Origin: Nitrospinota bacterium
GTDB lineage: Bacteria > Nitrospinota > Nitrospinia > Nitrospinales > VA-1
Length of the DNA stretch: 64,000 nucleotides
Direction of reading: 5' to 3'
Assembly (NCBI GenBank): GCA_027619975.1
Contig: JAQCGX010000004.1
Location: forward strand, 25,508 to 89,507
In this document: positions 3,295 through 43,302 of the stretch, piece after piece
Numbering within the stretch: position 1 is the first letter of the stretch
Layout of the letters: every line of letters starts with the position of its first letter
Program-made: the position numbers and the translations under genes
Notes under the pieces: generated by a model
Told to the model about the DNA's origin: nothing
What the model saw: only the letters and a program-made list of their open reading frames with translations
Databases searched by the model: none

Positions 3295-3672
3295 ATGGAC
3301 GAAAATGAATGGTCAAACAAAATAATTGGCGCGTGTATTGAAGTTCATAAATCCTTGGGGCCGGGATTATTGGAAAATGTTTACCAGAATTGCCTGGCAC
3401 GAGAATTTTCTTTGCAAAATATTCCTTTTCAAAAGGAAGTGTCCAAGCCAGTTGAGTATAAAGGTGTGTTAATGGATTGCGATCTTCGTCTCGATTTCCT
3501 GATAGATAATAAGGTCGTCGTTGAACTAAAAGCGGTTGAAAAGATTTTACCCGTCCACAAAGCTCAGGTATTGACCTATTTAAAACTAACAGGTTGTAAA
3601 CTTGGACTGCTGGTAAATTTCAATGTCTCGGCTCTTAAAGATGGCGTTGAAAGAATTGTTCTTGGCCTTTAA
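3295..3672 (+). CDS. GxxExxY family protein (PD-(D/E)XK-like)
   Basis: 125 aa. Begins ...IIGACIEVHKSLGPGLLENVYQNCL (the G-x-x-E-x-x-Y signature) and ends ...GLLVNFN; typical size for the family. Confidence 0.85.
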   Translation: MDENEWSNKIIGACIEVHKSLGPGLLENVYQNCLAREFSLQNIPFQKEVSKPVEYKGVLMDCDLRLDFLIDNKVVVELKAVEKILPVHKAQVLTYLKLTGCKLGLLVNFNVSALKDGVERIVLGL

Positions 3673-3674
3673 CC

Positions 3675-3700
3675 CTTTGCGTTCTTTGCGTCTTTGCGGT
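3675..3700. repeat. right arm of 26-bp inverted repeat (3 x CTTTGCG)
   Basis: CTTTGCGTTCTTTGCGTCTTTGCGGT starts 2 nt after the TAA stop of the GxxExxY gene. Confidence 0.85.
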
Positions 3701-3767
3701 AGAAATAGGGTTTAGTCTTCATATTTGCCCATAAACACTTCTTCATTAAAAGAAGAAAACATTCAAA

Positions 3768-4166
3768 ATGGTCATTTTTAGAACATCTAAAGAGACACTT
3801 TCAAAAGTTGTGGCGAATTGTAAACATGCTCTTGAAGTGAGGCCTGCAAAATTAAATTTTGGAGATATTATTCTAATTGCCCAGACGATAGACTCCTTGG
3901 ACTGTGGCAAGAAGCCAATTCGCTACCGAATGGAGTTTGTAAATTGTTATGAAGATAGAGAAGGGTTGAGTGAGAGAATTTGGGGAAGGCGTTGGAAGTA
4001 TATCATTGAAGGGAAAAACTGTTGCGAACTAAACAAACCATTTGATATTAGAAAAATCCCACATCTCAATACAAAAAAATATGAACGGGGTGGACCCATC
4101 GTTTATGTTGACCCTGATGATATAAAAAAATTAGAAGACTTGGGCTACTTGGAAGTTAAAAGCTAG
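3768..4166 (+). CDS. hypothetical protein (visibly AT-rich orphan)
   Basis: 132-aa ORF with an ATG start in a stretch much more AT-rich than its neighbours. No motif recognised. Confidence 0.45.
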   Translation: MVIFRTSKETLSKVVANCKHALEVRPAKLNFGDIILIAQTIDSLDCGKKPIRYRMEFVNCYEDREGLSERIWGRRWKYIIEGKNCCELNKPFDIRKIPHLNTKKYERGGPIVYVDPDDIKKLEDLGYLEVKS

Positions 4167-4185
4167 CACAAAGATATATAAAAAA

Positions 4186-4725
4186 TCACTCCCCAGGCAG
4201 GATGTTGGTGAACTGGTACTCTTCCACAGGAAAACCGATGGTCATGTCGAATTTGGTTTCACCCCATTGCTCGATGGATAAAAACTTCGTACTTTTTTCA
4301 TCGCTGAAGTCCCACACCACAAAAGGCATTCCCTCCTCCGCATCGCCCTTAAAATACTCGCCGATATCGTCCGTCTCGACATAAAACGTTTCCCCCTCGA
4401 ACACCACTTCCTCCGGCGGGTCTTCATGTTCGACGATGTGCCCGGCAATGTCGCCATCCAACTTGAAGATGGGCTTTTTCTGGCTCAGAGACCATGCGAC
4501 CTCGCCGTCTTCTTCCCCGCGTTCGAGGAACCAGGATTCGGACCCCAGCTGCAATTCCCACTCATCGGTCACTCCGCCCTCTTCCCACTCGTAGTGATTA
4601 CAGGCTGTGACCCGATACGTTTTCATATCGTAGTCCACCAGGAAACCGGGCTTGAGTTTGGAGAGCACCAGGTCCTCCAGCTGAGGTTGCTCCTCTTTTT
4701 TCTTTTTAAAAAAGTCGAATGCCAT
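4186..4725 (-). CDS. DUF4178 domain protein (YjfK-position gene of the PspA operon)
   Basis: 179 aa. The pattern LKPGFLVDYDMKTYRVTACNHYEWEEGGVTDEWELQLGSESWFLERGEEDG fits DUF4178 as I remember it. The start lies 1 nt after the pspA stop. Confidence 0.65.
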   Translation of the reverse strand: MAFDFFKKKKEEQPQLEDLVLSKLKPGFLVDYDMKTYRVTACNHYEWEEGGVTDEWELQLGSESWFLERGEEDGEVAWSLSQKKPIFKLDGDIAGHIVEHEDPPEEVVFEGETFYVETDDIGEYFKGDAEEGMPFVVWDFSDEKSTKFLSIEQWGETKFDMTIGFPVEEYQFTNILPGE

Positions 4726-4726
4726 G

Positions 4727-5437
4727 TCAGGAGATATTCATTTTGGCTTTCAAAGCGGCCAGACTGTCGGACACCGCCGGCAGTTTTGACCCCGAATCGA
4801 GCGCCTTGTTAATTTCATCATCGATGCTGGTGCTGGTGTCCGCAATTTCTCCGTAGGCCTTGGCCAGGGATTCATCCTCTTCCACCCGGGAACGCATTTT
4901 TTCCAGCATGGCAATGGTTCCACCCGCATCGACCTGGGCGATTTGCGCGTTCAGCTTTTTAGTGGCGGCGGCGGTTTTGGCACGGGCTCTCAGGGTGATC
5001 AGATCGTTTTCATAACGCTGGATGGTGGACCGCAATTTATCCACATTTTTCTGCAGTTGGTTCGACATCCCTTCCTGCGCCGTCATTTCCGTGTGCAACC
5101 GGACGGCTTCTTTGGAGGCGGTTTCTTTTCTCGACAACGCTTCCGTGGCCAGACGTTCGGCCTCGGCGGAATCCAGAGAACCGCCCTGCCCTTGCTGTAA
5201 CAATGCCATCGCTTTATGCTCGTAATCCGCCGCAAGTTTTTTCTTGTTCTCGGCGTCGTTGCGCATACGGATGACGATGCCTTTGACTTGCGCCAGGCTC
5301 TGCATGGATATGGTCAGATCTTTTTTCAGATCGCGGATGCCCTGCTCGGTCATTTTGATAGGATCTTCAATCTGATCCACCAGCGAATGAGCTTCGGCTT
5401 TGCCCATCCGGAAAATTCTGGAAAGTAATCCTGCCAT
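4727..5437 (-). CDS. pspA: PspA/IM30 family protein
   Basis: 236 aa. N-terminus MAGLLSRIFRMGKAEAHSLVDQIEDPIKMTEQGIRDLKKDL and a long coiled coil are typical of PspA/IM30/Vipp1. Confidence 0.9.
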   Translation of the reverse strand: MAGLLSRIFRMGKAEAHSLVDQIEDPIKMTEQGIRDLKKDLTISMQSLAQVKGIVIRMRNDAENKKKLAADYEHKAMALLQQGQGGSLDSAEAERLATEALSRKETASKEAVRLHTEMTAQEGMSNQLQKNVDKLRSTIQRYENDLITLRARAKTAAATKKLNAQIAQVDAGGTIAMLEKMRSRVEEDESLAKAYGEIADTSTSIDDEINKALDSGSKLPAVSDSLAALKAKMNIS

Positions 5438-5482
5438 GTTGAATCTCTCCTTTTATATCAATTTATATCGATGAATTCGGTT

Positions 5483-5878
5483 TTATTTGGATGCGGCAAA
5501 CGCAAGCAACTCTCCGCCATATTCTCCCAGCGCCAGACTCAAAGCATCAATGCTACCTTCCAGCTCGTTGCGGTCGAGGTTTTCCAGTTGCAGGGTGTCG
5601 CGAAACAGGAGGGTGTTGCCGCTGTCATCCAGAACAAAAGCGCCGTGGACCAGAGTGCGGTTGATTTGCAATAAGCGTTTGTAGATTTCAGCGGTTCCGT
5701 TCGGTAACGGCAGAATCACCTGTTCTAAAATCACGATCGGATCTTCGCAATCGATGACCAGATGCTTGACGCCTCGATCTTCATCATTCACGACCACCAG
5801 TTCTTCGGCGGCATCTTCCTGGTCAATGGTGAACCCCATGTCCAGCAAATACTCTTTAACGTTTTCAAAATTGGCCAT
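5483..5878 (-). CDS. YbjN/DUF2170-like PspA-associated protein
   Basis: The track ORF starts at GTG 5896, but the ATG at 5878 is preceded by GAGGAG. The acidic ~131-aa protein sits at the position of E. coli yjfI, directly upstream of the PspA paralogue. Family assignment is from memory. Confidence 0.55.
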   Translation of the reverse strand: MANFENVKEYLLDMGFTIDQEDAAEELVVVNDEDRGVKHLVIDCEDPIVILEQVILPLPNGTAEIYKRLLQINRTLVHGAFVLDDSGNTLLFRDTLQLENLDRNELEGSIDALSLALGEYGGELLAFAASK

Positions 5879-5888
5879 TCTTAACTCC

Positions 5889-6245
5889 TCATCCACGTTT
5901 TGACAGTTCTTTGTCTAATAGTCGGTAACTTTCGGTCAACCGCAGGGTCAATTCTCCGGCGACTTTTCTTTTCTCAGGATCGGCATCGTGCAGATCCGGA
6001 TGATATTTTTTCAGCAATCGTTTCCAGGCGGACTTTACCGCTGTACGGTTAGAACCCGGCTGGATTTCCAGATTCGCGTAATATTGGATGAACGGGTCTG
6101 AGGTCACAGGTGCTGACTCAAACGCTTCCCGCGTATCAAAATTAAAAGGCGTTTCGTTCGGATTGTAGACAGTTTTTTCCTCTGTCCGCTTTCCCATGAA
6201 ATCGTTCAAATTGGCACGGGCGATATCGACCAGTCGTTTCATCAT
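5889..6245 (-). CDS. J-domain (DnaJ-like) protein
   Basis: 118 aa. C-terminal YYANLEIQPGSNRTAVKSAWKRLLKKYHPDLHDADPEKRKVAGELTLRLTESYRLL is a J-domain with an HPD motif. There is a 4-nt overlap with the upstream gene, and the stop overlaps the next gene. Confidence 0.8.
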   Translation of the reverse strand: MMKRLVDIARANLNDFMGKRTEEKTVYNPNETPFNFDTREAFESAPVTSDPFIQYYANLEIQPGSNRTAVKSAWKRLLKKYHPDLHDADPEKRKVAGELTLRLTESYRLLDKELSKRG

Positions 6246-6778
6246 GATAGCGTTGCCCCGGCGTGAACATACAGATTGGTTTTACTGATGATGGACAACC
6301 CATCTTCCGGGTAGGTGTGAATGGTAACAAACCCGTTCGCGGCCAGATCGACCGCCACCCCGGTGAAAGGTTGCGCCGAGTTTGAGAGTTTTGCGGCCTC
6401 AAAACGGTGCGTCAATATTTCCATGGGTGGAATCTCTCCCAGCGAGGAGAGAAAACCCTCCATATCCTCGAACAACCGCGGGACCATTTCGATCGTCACC
6501 GCATACTGAATGTTTCCCACTTGATATTCTCTGCAATAATTTTCCCCGGCCTGCAAGGGGAAATGGTCCAAAGGCTTGTCCGTCGTTTCATCGGATGAAC
6601 AGGCGATGAATTCTGTCAGCGCCACGCCGCCCCCCCGGCTGATCACCCGGTGGCTCTTCCCTATAATACAGGTGTCGAGAACAACACGGTTGTCCAGGGT
6701 CCACTGGCCCTGATTGAAAATGGTGACCGGGCAATCCGGGACGCCTGCAAACAGGCTGAAATAAACGGGGTCAGACAT
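6242..6778 (-). CDS. hypothetical protein, first gene of the PspA operon
   Basis: 178-aa ORF with an ATGA overlap onto the J-domain gene. No motif recognised. Confidence 0.6.
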   Translation of the reverse strand: MSDPVYFSLFAGVPDCPVTIFNQGQWTLDNRVVLDTCIIGKSHRVISRGGGVALTEFIACSSDETTDKPLDHFPLQAGENYCREYQVGNIQYAVTIEMVPRLFEDMEGFLSSLGEIPPMEILTHRFEAAKLSNSAQPFTGVAVDLAANGFVTIHTYPEDGLSIISKTNLYVHAGATLS

Positions 6779-6841
6779 AAACGAGCAAACAATAGAAAAT
6801 CAATAGGGCTCCCAAGCGATAATGGGTGTATCAAGTTAAAA

Positions 6842-6870
6842 ATCCTACTTGTCGGGGATGGTTCTGTCAA
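6842..6870 (-). promoter_or_regulatory. candidate sigma70 promoter of the psp operon
   Basis: The minus strand reads TTGACA-17 nt-TAGGAT, about 64 nt upstream of the ATG at 6778. Confidence 0.35.
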
Positions 6871-6964
6871 CATCAATCCGTGCCCGATAAAATCCCGGCG
6901 CAGAGCCGAAAGCGGTACCCATGTCGATTTTGCTTGAATCGGTGGTAAACAAGCAACATCTTAA

Positions 6965-7185
6965 GGGCACCTCTAAAAATTATTTTATTACAGGAAATTG
7001 AACATTGTACAAGGATTTCATATATCAGTGGCACGGGCGACCTACCTTAAAGTTTATGCGGAAGTGCGGAATTTAATTCCGCCTTTCTAGCCCGTGCGGA
7101 CAGGCTGGAAAGCCTGTCCCACTAAAACAAAGCCATCTCCTTAAATTGACGATTAGGAGCATTTAGTCAATTTTTAGAGATGCCT
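6965..7185 (-). mobile_element. MITE copy A (221 bp, inverted orientation)
   Basis: Ends are GGGCACCTCTAAAAATT ... AATTTTTAGAGATGCCT. It is flanked by TTAA (6961-6964) and TTAA (7186-7189). It is about 90 percent identical to the reverse complement of copy D. Confidence 0.85.
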
Positions 7186-7231
7186 TTAAATTAAATCAGA
7201 CGTTCTCCCATCTGGCAGGAAATTAAAATTC

Positions 7232-8449
7232 ATGGAATACCGACGCTTTGGCCAAACCAATGAAATGCTTTCCGTCATCACCTTAGGTGGCATGCGCTTC
7301 ACTCATGGCTGGCTGCCTCCCCGCGACCGCCTGCCTCTGGAGTCTATCAAGAATTGTCTCGAAACCACACGCCAGGCATTGCAGTTGGGAATCAACCACA
7401 TCGAGACCGCGCATGGGTATGGCAAGAGCGAGCATCTCTACGGTGTAGCGCTCAAAGAATTAGCGGTTCCCCGCGACCAGTACAGGATGATGACCAAGGG
7501 AGCGCCGATGACCGCCGACGAGACCAAGGAACTTGTTGAGAGCCAGCTCACGGGCCTGCAACTGGACTTCGTGGATTTCTACGGATGGCATGGCATCAAT
7601 AATAAAGAACGATTACAAGCGGCTGTACGAACCGGAGGGCCAGTTGAAACGCTCCACCGGCTAAAGGAACAAGGACTGGTTCGTCATATCGGTTTTTCCA
7701 CCCACGGCCCACTGGATATCATTCTGCAAGCGCTGAATACCAACTTGTTCAGCTTCGTCAATTTACACTTTTATTACTTTTTTCAGCGCAATTTGCCAGC
7801 GGTCCAGTTGGCTGGCGAGAAGGATATTGGCGTTTTTATCATTTCTCCCAATGAAAAAGGCGGTCTCTTGTGGAAACCTTCGGAAAAGGTCAAGCAGGCG
7901 ACGCAACCGCTAACGGCCATCCAATTCAGCGGCCGGTTTTGCCTGAGCCACCCTGCAGTCACCACCCTGAGCATGGGCATGCACGAGCCGGAACATTTCC
8001 CTCAGAACCTGGCGATATTGAACGATGAAACGTATTTCTCCGAAGAAGATACAACAATTAAAACCACAATGGACGCCTCATTAAGCTCTGTTCCCGGCCT
8101 GTGCACCCTTTGCGACCAATGTCTGCCCTGCCCTGAAGACATCAATATTCCGGAAATTCTCCGCTTCAGAAATCTGCTGAAAGCCTATGACATGGTGGAT
8201 TACGGTAAATTCCGCTACAACATGCTGGAGGGCAAGGGCCACTGGTTTCCTGGCACCTTTGCTTTTAATTGCACCGAATGCGGCGACTGTCTGCCCCGAT
8301 GCCCGGAAAACCTGAAAATTCCGCAATTGTTGCTTCAAACCCATCATGAGCTGTTTGACCGCAAGGCCTATATCAAGAATAACATCATGGGTGTTGCACG
8401 CGTTGCCTATCAATTTCTGCGAAAAATTTTTAGCCCGGTTAGTTCTTGA
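7232..8449 (+). CDS. aldo/keto reductase with C-terminal 4Fe-4S dicluster domain
   Basis: 405 aa. N-terminal AKR pattern (INHIETAHGYGKSEHLYG). C-terminal CTLCDQCLPCP and CTECGDCLPRCP ferredoxin-type motifs. Confidence 0.85.
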   Translation: MEYRRFGQTNEMLSVITLGGMRFTHGWLPPRDRLPLESIKNCLETTRQALQLGINHIETAHGYGKSEHLYGVALKELAVPRDQYRMMTKGAPMTADETKELVESQLTGLQLDFVDFYGWHGINNKERLQAAVRTGGPVETLHRLKEQGLVRHIGFSTHGPLDIILQALNTNLFSFVNLHFYYFFQRNLPAVQLAGEKDIGVFIISPNEKGGLLWKPSEKVKQATQPLTAIQFSGRFCLSHPAVTTLSMGMHEPEHFPQNLAILNDETYFSEEDTTIKTTMDASLSSVPGLCTLCDQCLPCPEDINIPEILRFRNLLKAYDMVDYGKFRYNMLEGKGHWFPGTFAFNCTECGDCLPRCPENLKIPQLLLQTHHELFDRKAYIKNNIMGVARVAYQFLRKIFSPVSS

Positions 8450-13934: not shown

Positions 13935-16900
13935 TTACAGGATCGACGCTTCTTTCAGCAAGAGCATACGTTTGCAACCCTCCAGCAGTTGCTCGGTGTT
14001 CTGATAAGAATCATTTTTTTTGAGGACGGCCTGTAAATGCGGGATGGCTTTTTGGCACCGAAGGGTCTTGGCGTACATCTCGCCCAGAACATATTGAAGA
14101 TGCATATCTTCCCTATCCACCATACTGTAACGGGTCGCATAATCCAGCACGTTGCCCGGCTCCCCCAGAGCGCGGTAACTGAACACGATGCTTTGCAGAA
14201 CCGGAATATTCAAAGGATCCTTATCCAAAGCGACCAGTGAATATTCCAACGCTTTCAAATAATCCTTCTTCATGTTGTAATACTGGGCTGCTGAAAGAAT
14301 CAGGCTTGGGTTTTCCGGATCTTTTGCCAGTTTCTTCAAGAGTTCGATCAGTCCTATTTCCTGCATGACAGAACTCACTTGCCGAGGGTCTTTTTTGGCG
14401 ACGTTTTCAAAACTTTTCTTGGCTCGATCGATTTCGCCCAGCTCCAGCAGATTGTATCCCATATATAAATCCGCAAAGCTTCGGTTGGGAGCGCTCTGGG
14501 GAACTTTTTCTAAAATATCCATGCTGTTTTTGTGTTGACCCATCTGGTAATAGGCATGGCCAAGGTTCAGCAGGGCTTCGATATTTTCAGGATTTCTATC
14601 CACTTCCTGGGCCAGACGGGCGACCTGCCGTTTTCCCGCCTGCAGGTGATAGCGAACGAGGTTATTGTCATCCGCCAGGGAAAGGGCCTTCAAGAGTTGC
14701 CCGCGATTGCTGTACATAACCCCGCGCTGATACAGGTCCATCATCTCATAGTAGCGTTTCAGGGCCGCGCGGTCGCTCTCTGAAAGATGGGTGATTCGCC
14801 GGGCAATATCTTCAAAGGGGGTTCGGTTAAAAACATATTTCTCTTTGCCCGCCGTTCCAATGGTGGCGTCAAGGTCGAGGTAAAATTCAATGCTGGGACG
14901 GTTGTCGGTGATCTCGTCATAGCCTGCTGAAACGGCTTCGATCTGGTCTTCAAGGAACCAGATATTGCTCAGAAAAGAATACGCGTTTTCTATTTCGATG
15001 TCGGCGAGAGCTTCCCGGACAACGGGTTCCTGCAACCGTTGTTGCAATTTTTTAAAATCCAGGTTGATCGGCTGATCCGAGCCAATGATGAGCATTTCGT
15101 TGGCAACCGACATCCAGGCGATCGCATGCGGAAACACGTCATGAAAGGTTTTAAAATGCATCGCGACTTCTTTTTCTCCCTGACTGTGCAACGGAATCCA
15201 TTGCGCCACGATGCCCCCTGGTTTCAGCCGTTTTTGGGTCGCTTGATAATATTCCCTGGTGTACAGGTTGACTGTAAATGCCGTACGCGGCGGCGGCGGT
15301 TCCGAGGTGATGACGTCATACTTTTTGCCCGTGGTCAAAAGATGGTTCCTGCCATCCTGTAAAATAAATTTAACCTTCGGATTGTTGAGCACATCGTGGT
15401 TCTCCGAGGCGAATATCTTTCCGGCCCGAATCACGCCGGGGGACAAATCCACACTGTCCACGGAACGCACGCGGGGATGAATTCCGGCGGCGCCGGTCGT
15501 CTGCCCCGTGCCAAAACAAACCACCAGGACATCTTCCGGCGCATCGACCAGTAAAATCGGGACGTGGGCCAGGAGCTTCATATAGCGCGAGGCGATGAAG
15601 TTCGACGCCGACATGGAAATCCCGTTGGTGATCAATCGCTTGGCCTCCGGGTCCAGGATGCCGTAATTGTCTCTGAAAACGGCGACCGTATCCGTCAACC
15701 CCTCTTCGAAATACATGAGCGCCTTGGGGCTGCGCTGTCCCCCACTGTCCCGCATGAAGAACTTGTCCAGCAGATTGTCTGGAATCGCAAAGTTTAGAAA
15801 AAGAATGGTGACGGCAAAAACGACCGCAAGCCCCCGGCGTATCGCCGTTCCCAAATAGGAACCCTTAAGAAAAAGTAAAACTCCAAGAAGCAGGTTCAAC
15901 GAAGCGACGAGCATCAGACTTTTTTGACTTCCCAACTCGGGCAGAACCCAAAAACCCATAAATAACGAACCGAAAATTGCGCCGAGAGTATTGGAGGCGT
16001 AAATCTGCCCGGTGCCCTTGCCAACATGTTCATAGCCGCCGGAAACGATTTTAATCAGAATGGGCAAGCTCATGCCAAAACACAGAGTGGGGATCAGCAT
16101 CAGGCTTGCGGAATCTACAAAATAATGCCACAGGGTGACGGCAGGGTCGGTCAAGCGATAGCTGTCCCAAGGCGCAGAAAGCAGGCTTTCCATATTGTAG
16201 AGAGAACCGATCACGAACAAACCGATCACGACTTGCAGGCAAATCAGAACGGTTCTCAAGTTGGTGACACGGGAAACCACCGGAATGACCAGCAAGCTTC
16301 CCAGGACGATTCCCAACAGAAAGACCGCCAACATCATGCTGAAGGAATACACCGTGCTGGAAATGCTGAACACCAGAAGCCGGGTCCACACCACCTCGTA
16401 AGCCAGAGCGGTGAACCCGCAAATCAAGCTGACGCCCATCCAGTATTTTTGTTCGCAGTTTACGGAAATCGAGGGCAAAGAAAATTTTGGCAGCCTGACC
16501 TTGAACACACTCCCGCCTCCCGAGTCCTGGTAAACACGCAGGGCGCTGACTCCAATAAACAAATTCACCAAAGCCGCCAGCAGGACCGTCTGCAAAACAC
16601 CCAGGACACTGATCAATAAAAATCCCGTGAGCAGACATCCCACCGCCGCTCCGAGAGTATTGATGGCGTATAAAATTCCGATTTGGGTTCCTAACCGGGC
16701 GTTGTTCGTCACATAGTATTTACTGATGATTGGCAAGGTGGCGCCCATCAGGGTGGTCGGAATAAAAATCAGCAGGAAGGCCAGAACCGCTTTAATTGCA
16801 TTCTGAATAATTATGGAATCCGGGAGCCAGACGTGAATCCAGGCATAAAAAGAGGAAAAATTCGCCAAAAGCAAGGACAGAAGACCGCAGATAACGAATA

Positions 16901-17204
16901 GCGCAATCTCGACCCATCCATAGATCAGGAGCGGCGTATGAGCCGAGCCTTGAGACGGACGGATATCCATTTCACCCGCCTTTTCAACGGGTTCTTCCCA
17001 GGGGCCGGGCAGTCTGTCGATCGCCGCGCCAAACAGGTAACTGCCAAAACCCAGGCCCGCCATGAACGCCGCCAGCACCACGGACACGGAGAATACCGTA
17101 TGTCCGAACACCAGGGTGAGCATTCGGGTCCAGACAATCTCATAGATCAGGGCAGTAATACCGGAACAAAAGAAAAGAAAATAGATGACCGGGGAACGTT
17201 TCAT
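13935..17204 (-). CDS. fused polytopic membrane / spermidine synthase-like / TPR protein
   Basis: 1089 aa. Two similar multi-TM halves (...ALIYEIVWTRMLTLVFGHTVFS... and ...ALAYEVVWTRLLVFSISSTVYS...), a class I MTase/aminopropyltransferase core (VLVVCFGTGQTTG...DVITSEPPPP), and C-terminal TPR repeats. Confidence 0.8.
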   Translation of the reverse strand: MKRSPVIYFLFFCSGITALIYEIVWTRMLTLVFGHTVFSVSVVLAAFMAGLGFGSYLFGAAIDRLPGPWEEPVEKAGEMDIRPSQGSAHTPLLIYGWVEIALFVICGLLSLLLANFSSFYAWIHVWLPDSIIIQNAIKAVLAFLLIFIPTTLMGATLPIISKYYVTNNARLGTQIGILYAINTLGAAVGCLLTGFLLISVLGVLQTVLLAALVNLFIGVSALRVYQDSGGGSVFKVRLPKFSLPSISVNCEQKYWMGVSLICGFTALAYEVVWTRLLVFSISSTVYSFSMMLAVFLLGIVLGSLLVIPVVSRVTNLRTVLICLQVVIGLFVIGSLYNMESLLSAPWDSYRLTDPAVTLWHYFVDSASLMLIPTLCFGMSLPILIKIVSGGYEHVGKGTGQIYASNTLGAIFGSLFMGFWVLPELGSQKSLMLVASLNLLLGVLLFLKGSYLGTAIRRGLAVVFAVTILFLNFAIPDNLLDKFFMRDSGGQRSPKALMYFEEGLTDTVAVFRDNYGILDPEAKRLITNGISMSASNFIASRYMKLLAHVPILLVDAPEDVLVVCFGTGQTTGAAGIHPRVRSVDSVDLSPGVIRAGKIFASENHDVLNNPKVKFILQDGRNHLLTTGKKYDVITSEPPPPRTAFTVNLYTREYYQATQKRLKPGGIVAQWIPLHSQGEKEVAMHFKTFHDVFPHAIAWMSVANEMLIIGSDQPINLDFKKLQQRLQEPVVREALADIEIENAYSFLSNIWFLEDQIEAVSAGYDEITDNRPSIEFYLDLDATIGTAGKEKYVFNRTPFEDIARRITHLSESDRAALKRYYEMMDLYQRGVMYSNRGQLLKALSLADDNNLVRYHLQAGKRQVARLAQEVDRNPENIEALLNLGHAYYQMGQHKNSMDILEKVPQSAPNRSFADLYMGYNLLELGEIDRAKKSFENVAKKDPRQVSSVMQEIGLIELLKKLAKDPENPSLILSAAQYYNMKKDYLKALEYSLVALDKDPLNIPVLQSIVFSYRALGEPGNVLDYATRYSMVDREDMHLQYVLGEMYAKTLRCQKAIPHLQAVLKKNDSYQNTEQLLEGCKRMLLLKEASIL

Positions 17205-38739: not shown

Positions 38740-40317
38740 TTAGTACATATCCCAATCGCCCTTACGGTAATATTTGAGAAGAATGTGGTTGAACTGGGTA
38801 TTTACCTCGACGCCCGCAGACCGTTCGAACAGACCTTTACCGAAATGGGTCATGGAAGTCATTGCCTCGCGGTTTAAAAACCGCGTCTCCAACCCGGAAA
38901 ATTCTAGGCGCAGTAAATTTTCCTTGAGCCGATCCGCGCTCATCGCCTCGTTCTTCACTCCCAGGTTCCAGCCCCACTCCCCCATCGTCGGGATAGCGTT
39001 TTGATAAGGAACCACCGAAAACCCCGCGGCTTCCATACTTTTTTTGATACATAAAAATGCTTCTGGAGAATACAGAGGGCTGGTGCTCTGGGTCACCAGC
39101 ACGCCAAAAGGTTTCAAATGCTTATTCGCAAGTTTATAGAATCCCAACGAGTACAAAAGAGAAAGGGAGACGGATTTCGGATCGGGCAGGTCCACAATGA
39201 TGGCGTCATAAAGTTTTACGGAATTATTAATGAACTGGTAGGCATCCTGATTGATAATTTCCACCCGAGGATCGTTGAACGACCCCTTGTTGACCTTAAG
39301 AAAAATCTCATTTGACTTTGCAAGCCGGGTCATGGCCGGGTCCAGATCGACAACCGTGATTTTTTCGACATCGGGGTATTTCAACAATTCCCGCGCCGCC
39401 AGCCCGTCCCCGCCTCCCAGAACCAGGATGTCTCTGCGCTCTTTCAGTAGACTGACCGCAGGATGAATCAACGGCTCATGGTAACGGTGTTCATCATAAG
39501 TGCTGAACTGGATACTGCCGTTCAAAAACAGCCAGTGGTCGTCCTTCCATTGAGTGACAACGATTTTCTGGTAACGGGTCTGTTCCTCATAAATAATTTT
39601 ATCTTTGTACTTGTGCTGTTCGCCATAAAGGATGATGGGTTTGGCGAAATAAGCCGCGCCGGCGATGACAACGAGCAGGGCTGAAAAAATGACCTGTAGA
39701 GTTTTAGCCCATTTGAGCAATCCAGAAAATTTCCACAGGATCATTCCCGCTACCAGCAGGTTGAGGCCTCCCAGAAGAACAGGCGTGTAGGTCAGCCCTA
39801 AAAACGGCAAAAGCACGAAGGCAAACAACGCCCCTCCCGCCAGCGACCCGTAATAGTCAAACTCCATCACCGAAGAAATGTTGACCCTGAGCGGTTCGTG
39901 TTTTTCATTGATCCTGGTGACCAATGGAATTTCAAGTCCGGTCAAAAACCCAATCAGACAGGCGACGCCATAAATCACCAGCCCATTGTGAACGGTGAAG
40001 GCGGCGATCCAGAAAGAAAAAATTGCCGAAAAGGTGCAAAATAATGACAGGCCAAATTCAGCGCAGACATAACGGTCCAGAAGATTTTCTGATAATTTTC
40101 GACTTTGGCGGCTCCCGAGTCCCATGGAAAACAGCATGAGGGAAATGACTGCGGTCCATTGAAAAATGGTGTTGCCAAGCAGGTAACTGGCCAGGGTGGC
40201 CAGTGTGTATTCCGTCACCATCGCCGCGCAACCGGTGGCGAACATACAAATTTTCAGAATCAGGCTCAGTTGCGAGCGAGAGGCCTCAGGAGAATGGTTG
40301 GTCGTCGTGGATTGCAT
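38740..40317 (-). CDS. membrane-bound polyamine aminopropyltransferase (spermidine synthase-like)
   Basis: 525 aa. About 7 N-terminal TM helices, then the SpeE core (VLGGGDGLAARELLKY...VDLDP...IIVDLPDP). Confidence 0.8.
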   Translation of the reverse strand: MQSTTTNHSPEASRSQLSLILKICMFATGCAAMVTEYTLATLASYLLGNTIFQWTAVISLMLFSMGLGSRQSRKLSENLLDRYVCAEFGLSLFCTFSAIFSFWIAAFTVHNGLVIYGVACLIGFLTGLEIPLVTRINEKHEPLRVNISSVMEFDYYGSLAGGALFAFVLLPFLGLTYTPVLLGGLNLLVAGMILWKFSGLLKWAKTLQVIFSALLVVIAGAAYFAKPIILYGEQHKYKDKIIYEEQTRYQKIVVTQWKDDHWLFLNGSIQFSTYDEHRYHEPLIHPAVSLLKERRDILVLGGGDGLAARELLKYPDVEKITVVDLDPAMTRLAKSNEIFLKVNKGSFNDPRVEIINQDAYQFINNSVKLYDAIIVDLPDPKSVSLSLLYSLGFYKLANKHLKPFGVLVTQSTSPLYSPEAFLCIKKSMEAAGFSVVPYQNAIPTMGEWGWNLGVKNEAMSADRLKENLLRLEFSGLETRFLNREAMTSMTHFGKGLFERSAGVEVNTQFNHILLKYYRKGDWDMY

Positions 40318-40348: not shown

Positions 40349-41194
40349 TTACAGACACCAGATAATCAAAAAAGAGGAACCGATGTAGGACACGGCTTCC
40401 AGGTAGGCGGCGCCCACATTGGGCTTTTCCTGATTCACCAGTTCATCCGCCAGCCTGCGACTGGGCAAAAGCACCCGGTCGGTGATCATCCTTGCGGCGG
40501 GTAAGAGCAGGAGGCCTAAAAAAACAAACCAGATAAAAGTCATGAGATTGCTTTCCCAGGAGACAAAATTTTCCGCCGAAGCGGCGCGCATCAGATTGCC
40601 GATGGCGATCAAGGCTCCGGCAAAACCCACACCCACCGCGACGTTATCCTTTTCTATATGTTCGTGGATATCGTAATGCGTGATCAGGTTGTAATAGTGG
40701 CCGATCAACACCAGGATGCCCTGACCCAACGCCCAGAAAACCAGGGCGGTGTAGATATTGCCCCCGGTCCCGTACACGGCTCCGAAAATATTCAATCCGG
40801 AAGCAACAAATATCGCAAACTCCACCACTCCGGTGCCGCAGTTTTGGTCATCCAGAATTTCTTTGCGAATGTTAAACTTGTAAAGAATGAAGCGATCGTT
40901 GATCCAGGCGGATATATTGAGCAGGAAAATGGCGAGCGGTCCGTAGACCAGTAAGTCGATCAGATCCTCAACCAAGCCCGCCGAAGGGCCTGCAATCACC
41001 CCGCCAATGGCCAGGATCAAGCCCAGGTAATAACCACCCATGACCAGGGCGAGCGCGGCGTTGTCCTCTTCAACTAACTCGTGCGGGATGTTGTACCCCA
41101 CCCGACACAGGCGGAATACGCCGTGCCCAATGGCTAAGAGCACCAGGCAGGCGAGCAAATAAATAACAGAGGTTAATAAATTATCCAGCCACAT
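40349..41194 (-). CDS. DUF350 (YjfL-like) membrane protein, duplicated domain
   Basis: 281 aa, polytopic, with two similar halves carrying Gly-rich helices (…LGLILAIGGVIAGP… and …VGVGFAGALIAIGNLM…). Family assignment is from memory. Confidence 0.55.
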   Translation of the reverse strand: MWLDNLLTSVIYLLACLVLLAIGHGVFRLCRVGYNIPHELVEEDNAALALVMGGYYLGLILAIGGVIAGPSAGLVEDLIDLLVYGPLAIFLLNISAWINDRFILYKFNIRKEILDDQNCGTGVVEFAIFVASGLNIFGAVYGTGGNIYTALVFWALGQGILVLIGHYYNLITHYDIHEHIEKDNVAVGVGFAGALIAIGNLMRAASAENFVSWESNLMTFIWFVFLGLLLLPAARMITDRVLLPSRRLADELVNQEKPNVGAAYLEAVSYIGSSFLIIWCL

Positions 41195-41244: not shown

Positions 41245-41958
41245 TCATTTCCCAAAACTCATTCCCCGGCTTCGAAAAGAACTTTTGCTTCTGCCCACCC
41301 TTTGGTTGATCTTGTTTTTGAATCGGCTTTGCGACTGACTCATTTTCGCCGACTTGCGTGCATAAAAATCCGGTTTTTGTGTTTTAGTCACCGACCCGTT
41401 GGTTCCATACTGATTATTACTACCGAAATAAGGTCGCCCCCCGGATAGGTTGGTGGCATAATTATTATAATGGTTGCGGTTCATCCCGAACCCCGCCCAG
41501 TTCATCACCTGAGACATAAGCATGTATTTTCCGTAAAACTCCCACATGCTGCCGCCGCTCTCATCTTGCCGCCAACGACCGTATTCAGGATTGCCCACGT
41601 ATTGATAGCCATTGGGAATGGGTGTGTTGGTCGCCTTACCGTCAGGGGTCTTCGTTGCCAGGGCCATCCCAAGATACGGCTCGTTTTTTTTGTAGAAGGG
41701 TTCCGTCACTTCCACAAAGGGACCGACTTCCTTAGTCTCGCCCTTATCGATGCGGTATTGATGATAATAGGACGGTACAAAATTTCCTTCTTCCCGCATA
41801 TCATTCAAAATAATGGCATACTCTTTTTCAGCCGCGAGTTCCTTTTGCAGTTTTTCCACCGGATTGCTGAACCCGCCGCAACCCGCAAAGGTCAGCGCCG
41901 CAAACAAGCATAGGATGAATGCTAAAAAGATCCGAGCTGGGAAATGATGAGTTCTCAT
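41245..41958 (-). CDS. lipoprotein, G/N/Y-rich with basic tail (YjfM/DUF1190-position)
   Basis: The start is taken at ATG 41958 (MRTHHFPARIFLAFILCLFAALTFAGCGG, with a lipobox). The 96-codon upstream extension in the track has no support. Confidence 0.55.
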   Translation of the reverse strand: MRTHHFPARIFLAFILCLFAALTFAGCGGFSNPVEKLQKELAAEKEYAIILNDMREEGNFVPSYYHQYRIDKGETKEVGPFVEVTEPFYKKNEPYLGMALATKTPDGKATNTPIPNGYQYVGNPEYGRWRQDESGGSMWEFYGKYMLMSQVMNWAGFGMNRNHYNNYATNLSGGRPYFGSNNQYGTNGSVTKTQKPDFYARKSAKMSQSQSRFKNKINQRVGRSKSSFRSRGMSFGK

Positions 41959-42201: not shown

Positions 42202-43302
42202 ATGAATCCATTGATTTGGAAACGCATCAAGCGCTTGCTTCTCCACCGCGAGCTCCGATATCCCCTCACTCTTATATTAATACTTCTGGGAATGATCCTC
42301 ATCTTTGCGACGGTCTTTTCCCTGTTTGAAGAAGGCGCCAGCTTTACCGACGGGCTGTGGACCGCTTACATCACGGTGACCACCATCGGCTACGGTGATT
42401 TTTCCGCGCAAACCCCGCAAGGAAGAGTGATCACTGTACTCACATCTTTATTCGGAATCGGGTGCTTTGCGGTATTCACCGGTATCATTGTTGAGAAGGC
42501 TCTTCAAAGGAGGATGAAAAAAGTGAAAGGCGAAGGACAATACACGCGAGAAGGCCATCTGGTGATTGTGAATGTTCCGGCTTACGATGAAATCCTGGAG
42601 TTAATGAATGAACTGGACCTCAGCCCCGACTTGAAGGAAATTCCACGCGTGGTTTTGGCGGAATCTCTTCCTGGGGGCGACAAGGAAATTCCAGATTTTC
42701 TCTCCAGCAGGATCGACGGCTTCATCATGGGGCTTCCAGCGTCGGGAGAAACTTTGGGTCGAGTCAATATCGGAAAGGCAAAAGCCTGCCTGATCATGTC
42801 GTCTCCCCATGACCCGAAGCTGGACGACACCAACACGCTGACTGCTGGACTCATCGAAAAAATCTGTCCGCAGGTGATCACCATCATCGCCTGTAGCCGA
42901 CCGGAGACGATGAAAAACTTGAAGGCCTTCAATATCGATGGCGGCATCAATGCCACCGAATTGAACGTGGGATTGCTGGTTCAGGAACTGGAAGACCCCG
43001 GCGTGTTTGAGGTCTACAGTCAATTGTCATCCAACGCGGGAGGCAGCCAGATCTACATCAGCCGAACGCCGATGGGAAACTGGGACGGAGATATCAATCA
43101 GCTCACAATCCGGCAAATAAAAATCTCAGCGATTCATCTGGACCTGCCGACGGAGATTATCGGCATCAAGCGCGAATCCAATGAACAATTATTGCTCAAC
43201 CCTGCAAACGATGAGCGGATGCTGCCAACCGACCGGCTGGTTTATGTCGCAAAACAACGGTTTGACTGGCAGAAAAAAAGTGCGGAAATTTTAAACGCAT
43301 AA
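42202..43302 (+). CDS. potassium channel protein (2-TM pore plus cytoplasmic RCK-like domain)
   Basis: 366 aa with the selectivity filter TVTTIGYGD between two TM helices. Confidence 0.8.
   Translation: MNPLIWKRIKRLLLHRELRYPLTLILILLGMILIFATVFSLFEEGASFTDGLWTAYITVTTIGYGDFSAQTPQGRVITVLTSLFGIGCFAVFTGIIVEKALQRRMKKVKGEGQYTREGHLVIVNVPAYDEILELMNELDLSPDLKEIPRVVLAESLPGGDKEIPDFLSSRIDGFIMGLPASGETLGRVNIGKAKACLIMSSPHDPKLDDTNTLTAGLIEKICPQVITIIACSRPETMKNLKAFNIDGGINATELNVGLLVQELEDPGVFEVYSQLSSNAGGSQIYISRTPMGNWDGDINQLTIRQIKISAIHLDLPTEIIGIKRESNEQLLLNPANDERMLPTDRLVYVAKQRFDWQKKSAEILNA

Follow-up and report, generated by a model that had tools for sequence, protein, structure and literature searches.

The locus described here raises the question of whether a bacterial PspA protein is served by an Hsp70 co-chaperone encoded in its own operon. 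In the window, which is the whole 64,000-nucleotide stretch of Nitrospinota DNA that was analysed, a gene for a small J-domain protein (the J-protein) lies shortly upstream of a gene for a PspA/IM30 membrane-repair protein. VIPP1 rods have been reported to be both built and taken apart by HSP70B together with CDJ2 and CGE1, and E. coli DnaK can stand in for HSP70B (PMC6882379; PMC10602608). A relationship between Hsp70 and PspA/Vipp1 has so far been demonstrated with chloroplast CDJ2 and proposed for cyanobacterial DnaK2/3, and a 2026 review lists chloroplast CDJ2 as the sole J-protein partner for the superfamily. The same review describes ESCRT-III as the one component that is conserved in bacteria and YjfJ-type proteins as little known. 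It is a recognised gap in knowledge how bacteria disassemble or recycle PspA/Vipp1 polymers when they have no ATPase of the Vps4 type, and the regulation of assembly in PspA homologues without an AAA+ ATPase was stated to be unknown by Ravi et al. 2024 (PMC11237479).

The J-protein gene is the second of five open reading frames that form a compact minus-strand operon in the order DUF2617, J, CesT/Tir-like, PspA/IM30 and DUF4178. The genes and the parts of the J-protein are as follows.

6242..6778, minus strand: DUF2617 protein, operon gene 1 (Pfam DUF2617, E=6.7e-6)
5889..6245, minus strand: J-protein, 118 aa (open reading frame, Pfam DnaJ above the cut-off, AF2 model)
6189..6245, minus strand: α0-like helix of the J-protein, codons 1-19, MMKRLVDIARANLNDFMGK (profile, HMM, AF2, hydrophobic moment)
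6090..6188, minus strand: linker of the J-protein, codons 20-52, variable and predicted to be disordered
5892..6089, minus strand: J-domain of the J-protein, codons 53-118, helices I-III, with HPD at nt 5994-6002
5483..5878, minus strand: CesT/Tir-like (YbjN superfamily) chaperone (Pfam CesT_Tir_1, E=4.9e-52)
4727..5437, minus strand: PspA/IM30 (ESCRT-III superfamily) protein, 236 aa (Pfam PspA_IM30, E=7e-47)
4186..4725, minus strand: DUF4178 protein, last operon gene (Pfam DUF4178, E=8.5e-17)

The start codon of the J-protein gene (ATG, 6245-6243) and the stop codon of the DUF2617 gene (TGA, 6244-6242) overlap as ATGA. At the other end, the stop codon of the J-protein gene (5891-5889) falls within a Shine-Dalgarno sequence, GAGGAG, and lies 10 nt ahead of the ATG of the CesT-like gene at 5878. 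This ATG is the likely start of the CesT-like protein, giving 131 aa, the usual family length, while the alternative GTG at 5896 is probably too far upstream. The 118-aa reading frame is thus encoded exactly as the initial annotation had quoted it, and the coupling to both neighbours that it described is seen in these two junctions. Its placement of the gene two genes upstream of pspA also holds, the PspA gene being the second one downstream. The operon PspA could be aligned over its full length with solved structures of Vipp1 (E=5e-15), and an identical J-protein is annotated at NCBI from a Nitrospinae MAG. A TTGACA-17-TAGGAT site is found at 6870-6842 on the minus strand, upstream of the DUF2617 gene, and a scan of 3600-7400 for promoters and terminators gave sites no more numerous than in shuffled sequences. 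A motif search for dnaK across the window found none.

We then examined the integrity of the J-domain. Pfam DnaJ (PF00226) matches residues 54-94 with a score of 33.5 bits (E=4.6e-8), above its gathering cut-off of 27.8. The HPD motif occupies residues 82-84, in the loop that joins helices II and III. It is unchanged in all 34 aligned homologues and in all 32 PspA-linked loci, and the aligned homologues also conserve a basic face on helix II (KRLLKKY). In the AF2 model, pLDDT exceeds 90 over residues 53-117. The top Foldseek matches to this model in the PDB were all J-domains, with rmsd values of 1.5-2.6 Å over about 57 columns, and the DnaK-bound J-domain 5nro_B was matched with an rmsd of 1.6 Å over 57 columns. 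Helix IV is not distinct, and helix III extends to the C-terminus. The C-terminal J-domain with an intact HPD motif that had been read from the sequence is therefore borne out by the Pfam score, the invariant motif and the predicted fold, which is that of solved J-domains. A pseudo- or degenerate J-domain was rejected, since the HPD motif is invariant.

The J-protein is a minimal class-C (type III) J-domain protein with its J-domain at the C-terminus. Membership in three other groups was rejected on curated cut-offs. The canonical DnaJ model (class A/B; TIGR02349) scored 27.9 bits against a cut-off of 377, and the canonical layout, in which an N-terminal J-domain precedes a G/F region, an optional zinc finger and C-terminal domains for client binding, is absent, as the J-domain is C-terminal and the protein stops at residue 118. 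The NCBIfam model of DjlA scored 22.1 bits against 162, and the J-protein has an amphipathic helix and no transmembrane segment. The NCBIfam model of AtcJ, a cold-adaptation J-protein, scored 25.9 bits against 150.

The N-terminal part of the J-protein had initially been described as unrecognised, and this description has to be revised. An alignment of J-protein homologues shows a conserved N-terminal block (xxxxKRLxxIARA, with Arg4 invariant), an unconserved stretch and the J-domain. When a 20-residue profile of the N-terminal block was searched against 177,635 distinct PDB sequences, 12 matches were obtained, 11 of which are Vipp1 or PspA. Nine of these 11 lie at the extreme N-terminus, residues 1-20, and the other two are tagged Synechocystis PspA chains that were matched at residues 23-39. 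The best match was Synechocystis Vipp1 MGLFDRLGRVVRANLNDLVS (E=6.9e-5), and further matches included Nostoc Vipp1 (E=2.8e-3), E. coli PspA (0.018) and Synechocystis PspA (0.05). The relationship was also seen against a background of 4992 ORFs, where PspA N-termini made up five of the six best non-family matches of the J N-terminal HMM, and where the first non-PspA matches of the PspA N-terminal HMM were J-proteins. Both groups of N-termini have the common pattern h-F-x-R-h-F-x-h-x-[RKQ]-[AS]. The hydrophobic moment is 0.43 for the J-protein of the window and 0.43-0.55 for N-termini of the family, compared with 0.42-0.57 for PspA/Vipp1 α0. Judged by sequence, residues 1-19 of the J-protein are a homologue of helix α0, in register with that of PspA/Vipp1, and the signal spans about 20 residues.

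The AF2 model places a helix at residues 2-17 with a confidence of only about 55-61 and disorder at residues 18-52, where pLDDT is below 50 over most of residues 20-41. The linker has no conserved columns, and its length varies from 27 to 65 residues across loci. Based on the profile matches, the predicted helix and disorder and the variable linker length, the architecture of the J-protein is α0, a flexible disordered leash and a J-domain. PF04012 does not match the J-protein, in which the ESCRT-III-like core helices α1-α5 are missing. A Pfam scan of ten N-terminal peptides of 24-25 aa at E<=10 gave no match, probably due to the HMMER filters acting on very short queries. In Vipp1, α0 (aa 1-22) is responsible for membrane binding, and in Vipp1 rings it stacks on the neighbouring α0 and the N-terminus of α1 to form Interface 2, lining the lumen (PMC8281802). 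The α0 of the J-protein is closer to that of Vipp1 and classical PspA (RANLNDL) than to that of the cognate operon PspA (FKxGQSEAH), which means that it may actually partner with the membrane or with a different paralogue of PspA. This likeness fits conservation for a shared function in membrane binding or stacking. The α0 homology would provide a concrete physical link to PspA, which goes beyond the reading in the initial annotation.

The initial annotation had made its proposal depend on whether the linkage recurs in other genomes. We scanned one genome per GTDB species and mapped the 80 resulting loci with the five proteins of the window. All 31 non-myxobacterial loci with enough flank to be assessed contain J, CesT-like and PspA genes in this order, and they come from at least nine phyla (Nitrospinota, Calditrichota, Gemmatimonadota, Latescibacterota, Bacteroidota, Acidobacteriota, Nitrospirota, Tectomicrobia and Bdellovibrionota). 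The Acidobacteriota carriers include the cultured Sulfidibacter corallicola (L031). At L040 the sequence ends inside the CesT-like gene. Among generic J-domain control loci from the same scan (L052-L080), a PspA or CesT-like gene was found nearby in none of 29. On this point the proposal of the initial annotation withstands its own refuting condition. The J family is clearly delimited, with end-to-end matches (E<=1e-24) to at least 150 representatives at the level of 50% identity. The genes for DUF4178, a conserved protein without a Pfam match, DUF350, the membrane spermine synthase and the K+ channel shift their positions around the triad, indicating that J, CesT-like and PspA genes are the conserved minimal unit. 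In a reverse survey we started from eight CesT_Tir_1 proteins on long contigs, of which seven could be assessed and one lay on a cut contig. The J gene was located between the K+ channel and CesT-like genes in four of the seven (L083-L086), and it was missing from the other three CesT-PspA loci (L081 of Scalindua, L082 and L088), which indicates that it is frequent but optional and not required for the core system.

The remaining genes that accompany the triad elsewhere are also present in the window, about 32 kb from the J-CesT-PspA operon, between 38740 and 43302.

38740..40317, minus strand: membrane-anchored spermine/spermidine synthase-like protein (Pfam Spermine_synth, E=1.1e-42), 51% identical to the L086 system gene
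40349..41194, minus strand: DUF350 (YjfL-like) membrane protein (Pfam DUF350, E=9.4e-51)
41245..41937, start approximate, minus strand: conserved protein accompanying DUF350, no Pfam match (tblastn, 43% identity between window 41254-41922 and the 241-aa neighbour in L084)
42202..43302, plus strand: K+ channel with RCK domain (Pfam Ion_trans_2, Slo-like_RCK)

In the other Nitrospinota loci L005 and L009, the DUF4178 gene is directly followed by those four system genes, indicating that in the present genome the two halves of the system have been separated by an insertion or a rearrangement. Operons with CesT/Tir, PspA (YjfJ-type), DUF4178, DUF350, spermine synthase and K+ channel genes are a published class (Ravi et al. 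2024, mSystems, PMC11237479). The operon and the genes at 38.7-43.3 kb belong to this polyamine-linked class, with CesT and PspA adjacent, DUF4178 in the operon and the rest non-contiguous. DUF2617 co-occurs here with the CesT-PspA dyad, whereas it was reported in variants replacing the dyad (PMC11237479). The DUF2617 gene is located directly upstream of J in all the Nitrospinota loci L001-L007 and L009, alongside the dyad.

A sister subfamily of the same architecture was found in Myxococcota (158-212 aa; L023-L028, L032, L034, L038, L039 and L042-L051), with the following examples.

L049:6686-7204: myxobacterial J-protein
L043:6695-7210: myxobacterial J-protein

These proteins consist of an N-terminal block MSxxxRLIDLARAxLNxLLDKA, a long and highly charged linker (…DELEAELRRRRERR…) and the J-domain. 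Their α0 continues into the PspA 'NALLEKA' junction, and a profile of the subfamily matched E. coli PspA at residues 5-25 (E=0.005) as the sole PDB match below 0.1. In several loci an RNase G/E-like gene immediately precedes the J gene, and within the flanks examined the myxobacterial loci contain no PspA or CesT-like gene. The generality of the linkage to PspA is bounded by this unlinked subfamily.

Based on these observations, we suggest that the J-protein is an α0-targeted DnaK co-chaperone for PspA, which is overall the best explanation and has, in our estimate, about an even chance of being right. We infer targeting to the membrane or polymer by α0, a partnership with DnaK and PspA as the client. 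According to this proposal, the J-protein would be made together with the CesT/Tir-like chaperone and PspA/IM30 from one operon, and its α0 module would bring it to the same destination as the α0 of PspA itself, namely the inner leaflet of the stressed membrane and/or Interface 2 of the PspA polymer, where α0 stacks on α0. Held there by its tether, the J-domain may stimulate ATP hydrolysis by DnaK beside the PspA protomers, and Hsp70 action could disassemble and recycle PspA assemblies or prime them for controlled assembly. Such a role of Hsp70 would be the counterpart of that of Vps4 on eukaryotic ESCRT-III and of CDJ2-HSP70B on chloroplast VIPP1. We put forward more tentatively, as a possible rather than a probable generalisation, that subunit mimicry is how bacteria, which have no Vps4, widely bring Hsp70 to PspA polymers. 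A free α0 would insert into the α0 stack or at the membrane interface and carry a leashed J-domain, and DnaK would serve as the motor of disassembly and recycling. The dedicated J-protein in a PspA operon that the initial annotation had proposed as a possible recruiter of Hsp70 is thus supported in part, by the intact J-domain, the linkage and the α0 connection, while the novelty it ascribed to the arrangement inside a PspA operon is restricted to the J gene, since this class of operon had already been described.

The position of the J gene allows another explanation, in which the α0-like helix is a tag for the CesT/Tir-like dimer and not for the membrane or polymer. The sites of the dimer would hold the N-terminus of PspA and the look-alike N-terminus of the J-protein, and DnaK, brought by the J-domain onto the chaperone-bound PspA, would load or release it. 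In 30 of the 31 linked loci the next gene after J is the CesT-like one, separated by a very short gap, and the N-terminal pattern common to J and PspA described above also speaks for this explanation. Class I chaperones of type III secretion act as dimers on the N-terminal regions of client proteins, and the CesT-like BacA of P. aeruginosa was reported, as unpublished data, to interact strongly with the PspA-like BacB (PMC10948618). However, in L019 (Cytophagaceae; 7001-8214) the PspA gene comes straight after J and a CesT-like gene is missing, the myxobacterial members also have no CesT-like gene nearby, and CesT-PspA dyads do without J in many genomes. We consider delivery bridged by the CesT-like protein unlikely. 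For a small accessory protein, the CesT-like protein shows unusual conservation: copies from different phyla are 52-77% identical to that of the window, and the mean column identity across phyla in the CesT_Tir_1 alignment is 55%. Its D-C-E motif is invariant, and it contains an LxNLDxNELE block. The CesT_Tir_1 family comprises at least 8000 clusters, and a comparison with PDB sequences gave no related solved structure.

The J-protein could also be a generic membrane-targeted co-chaperone with a logic like that of DjlA, so that PspA would not be its specific client. DnaK would then be parked at the inner membrane for the K+ channel, DUF350, spermine synthase or membrane proteins in general. 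The J gene often comes directly after the K+ channel gene, as in L083-L086 among many other loci; the myxobacterial J genes follow an RNase G-like gene with PspA not nearby; and there is the weak NCBIfam similarity to DjlA. On the contrary, the helix of the J-protein is specifically like α0 of PspA/Vipp1, beyond mere amphipathicity, as other membrane-targeting helices were absent from the PDB profile matches. In addition, the K+ channel gene is non-adjacent in Nitrospinota, Gemmatimonadota and Latescibacterota while CesT-PspA is always adjacent, and several loci (L012, L021 and L037) contain nothing but the triad. In our judgement this explanation is improbable. A third one casts the J-protein as a competitive decoy or regulator. 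Its free α0 would cap or poison α0 stacking or compete for a partner of PspA and thereby limit polymer growth, with the J-domain secondary and serving for example the turnover of the decoy. This idea starts from α0 forming an inter-rung interface in Vipp1, where a lone α0 could in principle terminate stacking. It is very improbable, and across phyla the HPD motif and the basic helix II show little or no variation, which argues for interaction with Hsp70 as the selected function.

We also compared the J-protein with known systems. CDJ2, which acts with HSP70B and CGE1 on VIPP1 in the Chlamydomonas chloroplast, is a dedicated J-protein linking Hsp70 to a client of the PspA/IM30 family, whose rings and rods it helps to assemble and take apart. 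CDJ2 is eukaryotic and nuclear-encoded with no operon link, whereas the present J-protein is bacterial, has 118 aa and carries its J-domain at the C-terminus. The first 19 or so residues of the J-protein match PspA/Vipp1 α0 in sequence, register and comparable hydrophobic moment, but it has no helices α1-α5 and is not a member of that family. E. coli DjlA is also a class-C protein with a C-terminal J-domain and localises DnaK to the inner membrane, but it has a transmembrane anchor and about 270 aa. AtcJ of Shewanella oneidensis is likewise very short, encoded in an operon with its partners and equipped with a targeting extension of about 20 residues, but its J-domain is N-terminal, its tag is C-terminal and its partners are different (PMC6715715). 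In clathrin uncoating by auxilin-Hsc70 and in the Vps4/ESCRT-III system, a lattice-binding module similarly recruits an ATPase against a membrane-bound polymer, and the analogy with uncoating and Vps4 has already been drawn for IM30 (PMC6882379). There is no sequence relationship to auxilin or Vps4, and what the AAA+ ATPase Vps4 recognises is a C-terminal MIM motif rather than α0.

DnaJ, J-domain, Hsp70 and DnaK receive no mention in Ravi et al. 2024, the main PSP comparative-genomics paper, or in its supplement (PMC11237479), which agrees with the earlier statement that a J-protein is undescribed in bacterial Psp systems. Non-exhaustive full-text literature searches, beside which a prior mention is possible, returned only chloroplast and cyanobacterial Hsp70 links and no bacterial PspA-linked J-protein, and they likewise gave no published mention of α0 mimicry by a J-protein. 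These comparisons suggest that the new part is a bacterial J-protein family mimicking the α0 of its proposed client, and that the known part is the control of PspA-family polymers by Hsp70 and J-proteins. If this is true, the relationship between Hsp70 and PspA/Vipp1 would be extended to at least nine non-photosynthetic bacterial phyla, and a minimal J-protein would gain client specificity by borrowing a 20-residue piece of its client, which is a simple design. With a conserved, operon-encoded J-protein that carries the α0 of PspA, the question of how these polymers are disassembled or recycled becomes directly testable with a handful of purified proteins.

Several minor observations were also made. 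The response regulator/HD-GYP and aldo-keto reductase genes were rejected as members of the system, because their synteny is found only in the close Nitrospinota relatives L001 and L002. A G+C-rich inverted repeat at about 7060-7125 (…GGACAGGCTGGAAAGCCTGTCC…) was noted in the 450 bp that separate the operon from a divergently oriented aldo-keto reductase-like gene (7232-8449). In L033 (Marinacidobacterales), a partial second J-domain match lies just before the CesT-like gene, with the full α0-J protein about 1 kb upstream (7001-7210, 8100-8219). Finally, 8 kb from the operon, the window encodes a 1089-aa protein (13935-17204, minus strand) that is a second, divergent paralogue of the spermine synthase-like protein. 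Its N-terminal region is polytopic, Pfam matches a spermidine synthase-like domain (E=1.2e-16), and TPR repeats are found at the C-terminus.
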